Positions 7,141 through 8,653 of a DNA stretch of 8,653 bases are shown here, piece after piece. The notes beneath the pieces were generated by a model. It was not told the origin of the DNA and made no database searches. It saw only the letters and a list, made by a program, of their open reading frames with translations. The DNA comes from a virus (taxonomy: Duplodnaviria > Heunggongvirae > Uroviricota > Caudoviricetes): positions 1-8,653 of IMG/VR virus record IMGVR_UViG_2526164666_000018; one strand, written 5' to 3'. The position numbers and the translations under genes are program-made. Position 1 is the first letter of the stretch, and each line of letters starts with the position of its first letter.

Positions 7141-7342
7141 CGCGACAGGAAGAACTTGCCGCTGCCCGTGCGGCACTGCATGACCTGATGACAGGAAAAC
7201 GGGTGGCAACGGTACAGAAAGACGGACGGCGAGTGGAGTTTACGACCACTTCCGTGTCTGACCTGAAAAATACATTGCTGAGCTGGAAGTGCAGACCGGC
7301 ATGACACAGCGACGCAGGGGACCAGCAGGATTTTATGTATGA
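7137..7342 (+). pseudogene. W: Head-tail joining protein gene W, apparently disrupted by a -1 frameshift in an A-run at 7266-7270 (or a sequencing error)
   Basis: From the ATG at 7137 the product is [35 protein letters not shown]...SDLK, then leaves the W sequence and stops at 7302-7304 (55 aa). The expected C-terminus [23 protein letters not shown] is encoded in the -1 frame from 7271 and ends with TGA at 7340-7342, overlapping the B start. The run has five A where six restore the frame. Confidence 0.65.
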
Positions 7343-8653
7343 AAATGTCCACCATTCCCACCCTTCTGGGGCCGGACGGCATGACATCGCTGCGTGAATA
7401 TGCCGGTTATCACGGCGGTGGCAGCGGATTTGGTGGGCAGTTGCGGGCGTGGAACCCACCGGGTGAAAGTGTGGATGCAGCCCTGCTGCCCAACTTTACC
7501 CGTGGCAATGCCCGCGCAGACGATCTGGTACGCAATAACGGCTATGCCGCCAACGCCATCCAGTTGCATCAGGATCATATCGTCGGGTCTTTTTTCCGAC
7601 TCAGTCATCGCCCAAGCTGGCGCTATCTGGGCATCGGGGAGGAAGAAGCCCGTGCCTTTTCCCGCGAGGTTGAAGCGGCATGGAAAGAGTTTGCCGAAGA
7701 TGACTGTTGCTGCATTGACGTTGAGCGAAAACGCACGTTTACCATGATGATTCGGGAAGGTGTGGCCATGCACGCCTTTAACGGTGAACTGTTCGTTCAG
7801 GCCACCTGGGATACCCGTCCCTCGCGACTGTTCCGGACACAGTTCCGGATGGTCAGCCCGAAGCGCATCAGCAACCCGAACAATACCGGCGACAGCCGGA
7901 ACTGCCGTGCCGGTGTGCAGATTAATGACAGCGGTGCGGCGCTGGGATATTACGTCAGCGAGGACGGGTATCCTGGCTGGATGCCGCAGAAATGGACATG
8001 GATACCCCGCGAGTTACCCGGCGGTCGTGCTTCGTTCATTCACGTCTTTGAACCCGTGGAGGACGGGCAGACCCGCGGTGCAAATGTGTTTTACAGCGTG
8101 ATGGAGCAGATGAAGATGCTCGACACGCTGCAGAACACGCAGCTGCAGAGCGCCATTGTGAAGGCGATGTATGCCGCCACCATTGAGAGTGAGCTGGATA
8201 CGCAGTCAGCGATGGATTTTATTCTGGGCGCGAACAGTCAGGAGCAGCGGGAAAGGCTGACCGGCTGGATTGGTGAAATTGCCGCGTATTACTCCGCAGC
8301 ACCGGTCCGTCTGGGAGGCGCAAAAGTGCCGCACCTGATGCCGGGGGACTCACTGAACCTGCAGACGGCTCAGGACACGGATAACGGCTACTCCGTGTTT
8401 GAGCAGTCACTGCTGCGGTATATCGCTGCCGGGCTGGGTGTCTCGTATGAGCAGCTTTCCCGGAATTACGCCCAGATGAGCTACTCCACGGCACGGGCCA
8501 GTGCGAACGAGTCGTGGGCGTACTTTATGGGGCGGCGAAAATTCGTCGCATCCCGTCAGGCGAGCCAGATGTTTCTGTGCTGGCTGGAAGAGGCCATCGT
8601 TCGCCGCGTGGTGACGTTACCTTCAAAAGCGCGCTTCAGCTTTCAGGAAGCCC
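7339..8653 (+). CDS. B: Portal protein (gpB-like), 5' portion; the ORF continues past the window end
   Basis: ATG at 7339 overlaps the ancestral W stop (ATGA). Frame 1 is open to the window end (438 codons). Translation MKMSTIPTLLGPDGMTSLREYAGYHGGGSGFGGQLRAWNPPGESVDAALLPNFTRGNARADDLVRNNGYAANAIQLHQDHIVGSFFRLSHRPSWRYLGIGEEEARAF... is near-identical to lambda gpB as recalled. It is absent from the ORF track only because no stop lies in the window. Confidence 0.9.
   Translation, partial: MKMSTIPTLLGPDGMTSLREYAGYHGGGSGFGGQLRAWNPPGESVDAALLPNFTRGNARADDLVRNNGYAANAIQLHQDHIVGSFFRLSHRPSWRYLGIGEEEARAFSREVEAAWKEFAEDDCCCIDVERKRTFTMMIREGVAMHAFNGELFVQATWDTRPSRLFRTQFRMVSPKRISNPNNTGDSRNCRAGVQINDSGAALGYYVSEDGYPGWMPQKWTWIPRELPGGRASFIHVFEPVEDGQTRGANVFYSVMEQMKMLDTLQNTQLQSAIVKAMYAATIESELDTQSAMDFILGANSQEQRERLTGWIGEIAAYYSAAPVRLGGAKVPHLMPGDSLNLQTAQDTDNGYSVFEQSLLRYIAAGLGVSYEQLSRNYAQMSYSTARASANESWAYFMGRRKFVASRQASQMFLCWLEEAIVRRVVTLPSKARFSFQEA

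Follow-up and report, generated by a model that had tools for sequence, protein, structure and literature searches.

Frameshift in the head-tail joining gene W of a draft Escherichia coli O26:H11 prophage contig, most probably a sequencing or assembly artefact

The head-tail joining gene W is frameshifted in the deposited sequence of the prophage contig studied here, but the genome itself most probably lacks this frameshift. The stretch of DNA analysed, referred to below as the window, is the whole contig AIGQ01000047.1 (8,653 nt) of the draft assembly GCA_000250015.2 of Escherichia coli DEC10B, a clinical, stx1-positive isolate of serotype O26:H11. According to our sequence comparisons, the frameshift in W is likely to be a sequencing or consensus error in an old draft, and not a feature of the organism. 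This reading is favoured because the differences private to the window are indels only, because they are absent from complete genomes, and because the same W of 55 amino acids (aa) recurs in other drafts as an undercall. The first-pass annotation had suggested either homopolymer sequencing errors or decay of a cryptic prophage, and on these grounds it is error that is favoured, decay being the less supported of the two. Real mutations private to DEC10B, in which replication slippage would have shortened the A6 run of W by one A and the terminase gene A would have gained one, both in a locked-in cryptic prophage, are considered unlikely.

Reading frames of W and A in the deposited contig

The contig holds only DNA of a lambdoid late region, namely the 3' end of a SASA esterase gene, the holin, lysozyme and Rz genes, the cosN site (4508-4519), Nu1, A, W and a part of B. 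The gene order is as in lambda, with one ATGA joining A to W (7137-7140) and another joining W to B (7339-7342). The reading frames of Nu1 and B are open. The features of the A-W-B part are the following:

5214-6971, plus strand: truncated gene for the terminase large subunit A, 585 aa instead of the normal 641 (product EHW71079.1), with the extra A at 6929
6925-7140, plus strand: C-terminal A fragment of 71 aa, read in the frame that A had before the insertion; it closes with the ATGA shared with the W start and covers positions 258-286 of 294 of the Pfam GpA_nuclease profile
6929, plus strand: extra A (GGATGG[A]CAGG) that frameshifts gene A, outside a homopolymer
7137-7304, plus strand: truncated W ORF of 55 aa (gpW residues 1-44 and 11 out-of-frame residues), deposited as EHW71081.1
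7266-7270, plus strand: run of five A, the site of the 1-nt deficit in W; six A in all relatives
7268-7342, plus strand: the rest of W, shifted to the -1 frame (24 residues before the stop), with the coding sequence for the last part of helix 2 and for the C-arm that binds the portal
7339-8653, plus strand: portal gene B, with an open frame of 438 codons that is cut off by the end of the contig

Read from its ATG at 7137, W meets an in-frame TGA at 7302-7304 after 55 aa, just as the first-pass annotation had reported. Its further statements, that the conserved C-terminus of W lies in the -1 frame and ends in an ATGA overlap with B, and that five A stand at 7266-7270 where six would give a gpW of 68 aa, agree with our results as well. 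The -1 frame terminates at the TGA at 7340-7342, within the ATGA at the start of the portal gene, and the exact position of the B start was corrected to the ATG at 7339-7341. At the run in question, six A are present in lambda, in an Stx1a phage and in E. coli 2313, and the window has five. The W gene of Stx1a-converting phages (LC645428 and related records) matches that of the window base for base apart from the missing A, and with one A restored, W of the window encodes 68 aa identical to WP_000198153.1. When this restored product was aligned to lambda gpW (PDB 1HYW), a comparison that had been proposed along with the original observation, 67 of the 68 residues were identical.

In the form in which it is written in the contig, W matches the Pfam family gpW (PF02831) over profile positions 1-44 of 66 only (81.7 bits), the match ending at about residue 45, and the restoration of one A extends it over positions 1-66 (126.7 bits). 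The restored W resembles lambda gpW (PF02831; PDB 1HYW, 8K38) in its length of 68 aa, in its full profile match and in the ATGA overlaps at both ends, while the ORF of the window differs from it in consisting of residues 1-44 followed by 11 unrelated ones, without the last part of helix 2 and the C-arm that binds the portal. In the cryo-EM structure of lambda, helix 2 of gpW spans residues 37-54 and the C-arm residues 55-68, and the C-arm binds the portal by beta-sheet augmentation (PMC10721106). With the frame of the window W lost past residue 44, the second half of helix 2 and the C-arm are absent from the ORF, and both are encoded intact in the -1 frame.

A second frameshift, in gene A, had also been noticed at first pass and was confirmed here as the extra A at 6929. 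Both frameshifts had been placed beside A-runs, which holds for W with its A5 run but for A only loosely, the insertion being situated 5 nt upstream of an A7 run that is itself intact. An explanation of both frameshifts as homopolymer errors is only partly true, since the lesion in A is an insertion outside that run. In exact look-ups, AIGQ01000047.1 was the only recorded source of both pieces of A, the product of 585 aa and the fragment of 71 aa. Furthermore, among 153 billion gene positions, no other assembly was found to have the 71-aa fragment spanning 6929, which counts against a real mutation in gene A.

Differences from close relatives and complete genomes

The window was compared with five close relatives, comprising an Stx1a phage, three complete genomes and the prophage of E. 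coli O26:H11 11368. Its private differences from these relatives amount to four indels and zero substitutions. Relative to E. coli 2313, the closest complete genome (99.8%), there are 13 differing alignment columns, corresponding to four indels and four substitutions, and every substitution of the window is common to at least one relative: those at 5804, 5807 and 7324 are as in the Stx1a phage, and those at 6839 and 7324 as in the 11368 prophage. Besides the missing A in W and the extra A in gene A, the private indels are the following:

266-271, plus strand: single CGCTGA unit at the 3' end of the SASA esterase gene, two units in relatives; an in-frame 6-bp contraction
4586-4590, plus strand: run of five T, six T in relatives; intergenic, in the cosB region, with cosN about 67 nt to its left and Nu1 about 100 nt downstream

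Differences among the complete genomes themselves number 10 substitutions and 1 indel in the stretch compared, as against zero private substitutions and four private indels for the window (Fisher p = 0.0037). Such an excess of indels in 8.6 kb speaks against real mutation. Moreover, two of the three single-base private indels are changes of a homopolymer from six to five, and runs of six or more cover 1.6% of the sequence (p about 8e-4).

The relationship with the 11368 prophage (NC_013361.1, 2183570-2199170), which comes from a strain of the same serotype, is especially close. The DNA of the window over 5808-7887 is identical to it save for two frameshift indels. In that prophage A, W and B are annotated as intact, W being WP_000198153.1 (NC_013361.1, 2191128-2191334). 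Unlike the window, both this relative and those of the Stx1a-phage group have six A and an unbroken W of 68 aa, and their gene A is free of the additional A.

Each lesion was also looked for in 5,426 complete E. coli genomes by means of a short query centred on it. The A5 run in W was found in 0 of the 670 complete genomes that have the same 71-nt local sequence (1,285 places), the extra A at 6929 in 0 of 3,191 with the same local sequence, and the T5 run in cosB in 0 of 649, likewise with the same local sequence. For the 6-bp contraction, there was no full-length identical match in any of 714 complete genomes. A W lesion inherited by related strains or by other prophage copies was accordingly absent from all the complete genomes searched, O26:H11 11368 included, and the absence of all four lesions from every complete genome is a further argument against real mutations.

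The contig as a whole is mosaic. Positions 1-5753 are nearly identical to the prophage of E. coli 2313, CFSAN027343 and RM8385, and the A-W part (5754-7560) carries variants of Stx1a phages and of the O26:H11 11368 prophage. This mosaicism could have arisen by natural recombination, or it could be a collapsed consensus of several prophage copies; O26 genomes contain as many as five copies of the lambdoid late region. There are no IS elements in the window, and no deletion or accumulated substitutions either, so that the usual signs of prophage decay are missing from it, which speaks against real mutations.

Variation in the length of a homopolymer was also seen between complete genomes. At window position 1530, the window and E. 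coli 2313 have a T5 run and the complete genome RM8385 has T4 (locus L004, at about 2535). A hypothetical gene on the minus strand is annotated at this site in 2313 and not in RM8385.

The 55-residue W in other draft assemblies

An identical 55-aa W was found on at least 24 other contigs with differing prophage backgrounds, and among the matches listed all are drafts. In nearly all of the listed drafts with the 55-aa W, the neighbouring genes A, B, C, E, Z, V or H are broken up, and in some of them the A7 run of gene A is reduced to A6. The frameshift gaps were used quantitatively for three loci (L007, L014 and L006), the divergent loci L005 and L008-L013 being excluded because their counts are inflated by alignment ambiguity. 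In 4.2 kb, there are 7 frameshift gaps at locus L007 and 5 at L014, with no more than 8-9 substitutions. The clearest case is L006, a cryptic remnant in an NCTC draft: when it is set against its counterpart in four complete genomes, the sole differences are the change of A6 to A5 in W and of G4 to G3 in B. With two undercalls as its only differences, this locus identifies the A6 run of W as a recurrent site of assembly-specific undercalling. The same lesion being demonstrably assembly-specific in other drafts, a real mutation in the window loses further ground.

The same locus bears on the idea that W is an inherited pseudogene in the O26 or cryptic-prophage lineage, which was rejected because the remnant has six A in the four complete genomes. 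A natural short form of W ending at residue 55 was likewise rejected: the matches listed for it all come from drafts, its last 11 residues are out of frame, and the Pfam coverage stops at residue 45. The 55-aa product has been deposited as 'gpW family protein' from several unrelated drafts (EHW71081.1, EIO29765.1, EIO66959.1 and STJ44310.1), and appears to be a recurrent artefactual database entry. In regard to the sequencing project itself, unexplained frameshifts in cas genes were described in an independent study of sister assemblies of the same project, and its authors suspected sequencing or assembly errors (PMC5592225).

One further scaffold is of a different kind. On locus L012 (9115-10168; GCA_000215165.1, scaffold GL896790.1), two copies of W, one intact with 68 aa and one of 55 aa, are separated by 0.9 kb, and both have terminase fragments next to them; two prophage copies seem to have been misassembled into one scaffold.

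Origin of the lesions and their meaning

In the most likely scenario, the A missing from W would be a base-calling or consensus error in a draft of the 2012 era, made on a short contig of multi-copy prophage DNA, the kind of region in which consensus quality is at its poorest. The collapse of several prophage copies offers a plausible, if hypothetical, cause of such a consensus artefact. An error of this sort is also the probable origin of the other three private indels (the extra A in gene A, the T lost from cosB and the 6-bp contraction). The real prophage would then encode an ordinary 68-aa gpW equal to WP_000198153.1 and an intact 641-aa terminase A, with normal translational overlaps between A, W and B. 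Six A are most likely what the reads or the DNA of DEC10B contain.

Two known types of lesion provide a frame for this comparison. The window resembles the homopolymer-length miscalls of draft or unpolished assemblies in its private undercalling of six to five, accompanied by other private indels and by no private substitutions, but one of the four private indels, that at 6929, lies outside a homopolymer. This insertion is not a classic homopolymer miscall and counts against an artefact, as do the preference of real slippage mutations for homopolymers and the fact that lambdoid prophages of EHEC strains do decay. On the other hand, the lesion in W resembles the frameshift pseudogenes of defective EHEC lambdoid prophages in its location in a morphogenesis gene and in its inactivating effect; yet those pseudogenes are normally inherited by related strains and carry substitutions, while the lesion of the window is found in one draft and without substitutions.

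Mutations private to DEC10B would nevertheless account for some of what was observed. Homopolymers are natural hotspots of slippage, and a gpW without the second half of helix 2 and the C-arm would be inactivated, as expected of a pseudogene (PMC10721106). In addition, the homologous prophage of 11368 contains, in a finished genome, a frameshifted gene for the minor tail protein U (locus L019, 13711-14105) together with a frameshifted small ORF (L019, 3344-3453). The frameshifted U in a finished genome indicates that this prophage lineage does decay, and the 11368 prophage may be defective there for other reasons. Under such an explanation, the prophage of DEC10B would be unable to package DNA or to complete heads. 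It is an unlikely explanation all the same, given the indel-only differences, the absence of the lesions from complete genomes and the assembly-specific recurrence described above.

A more elaborate version, which we regard as rather improbable, would take both frameshifts as real and private to DEC10B, so that a pristine late operon of the Stx1-phage type would have been disabled very recently in packaging (A) and in head completion (W). The E. coli tRNA-Lys is slippage-prone on A-runs, and traces of full-length gpW could possibly still be produced in this case by its -1 slippage on G-AAA-AAU.

Functional recoding, by a -1 ribosomal slip on CUG-AAA-AAU or by an A added by RNA polymerase to yield full-length gpW, is extremely improbable: although a -1 shift past Lys44 would restore the wild-type ...SDLKKYIAELE... 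exactly, the in-frame heptamer is G-AAA-AAU and not X-XXY-YYZ, the folding of the 83 nt downstream (MFE -17.2 kcal/mol) is not better than that of shuffled sequences (z = -0.68), the arrangement is present in 0 of 670 complete genomes, and all finished homologues have a single frame with six A. As the downstream sequence is the same as in the six-A relatives, which are read straight through, nothing has evolved in support of recoding, and programmed frameshifting was rejected as lacking a canonical heptamer, a downstream structure and conservation. In regard to the RNA polymerase, appreciable transcriptional slippage needs A-runs far longer than five.

With a sequencing or assembly artefact as the preferred explanation, the finding is mainly a point of data quality, and neither the artefact nor real mutations would open a new biological question. 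If the lesions were real, the prophage of DEC10B would be one more defective lambdoid prophage among the many known in EHEC strains. It would be a mistake to take the 55-aa gpW and the 585-aa terminase entered in public databases for natural variants of these proteins or for evidence of a defective prophage.
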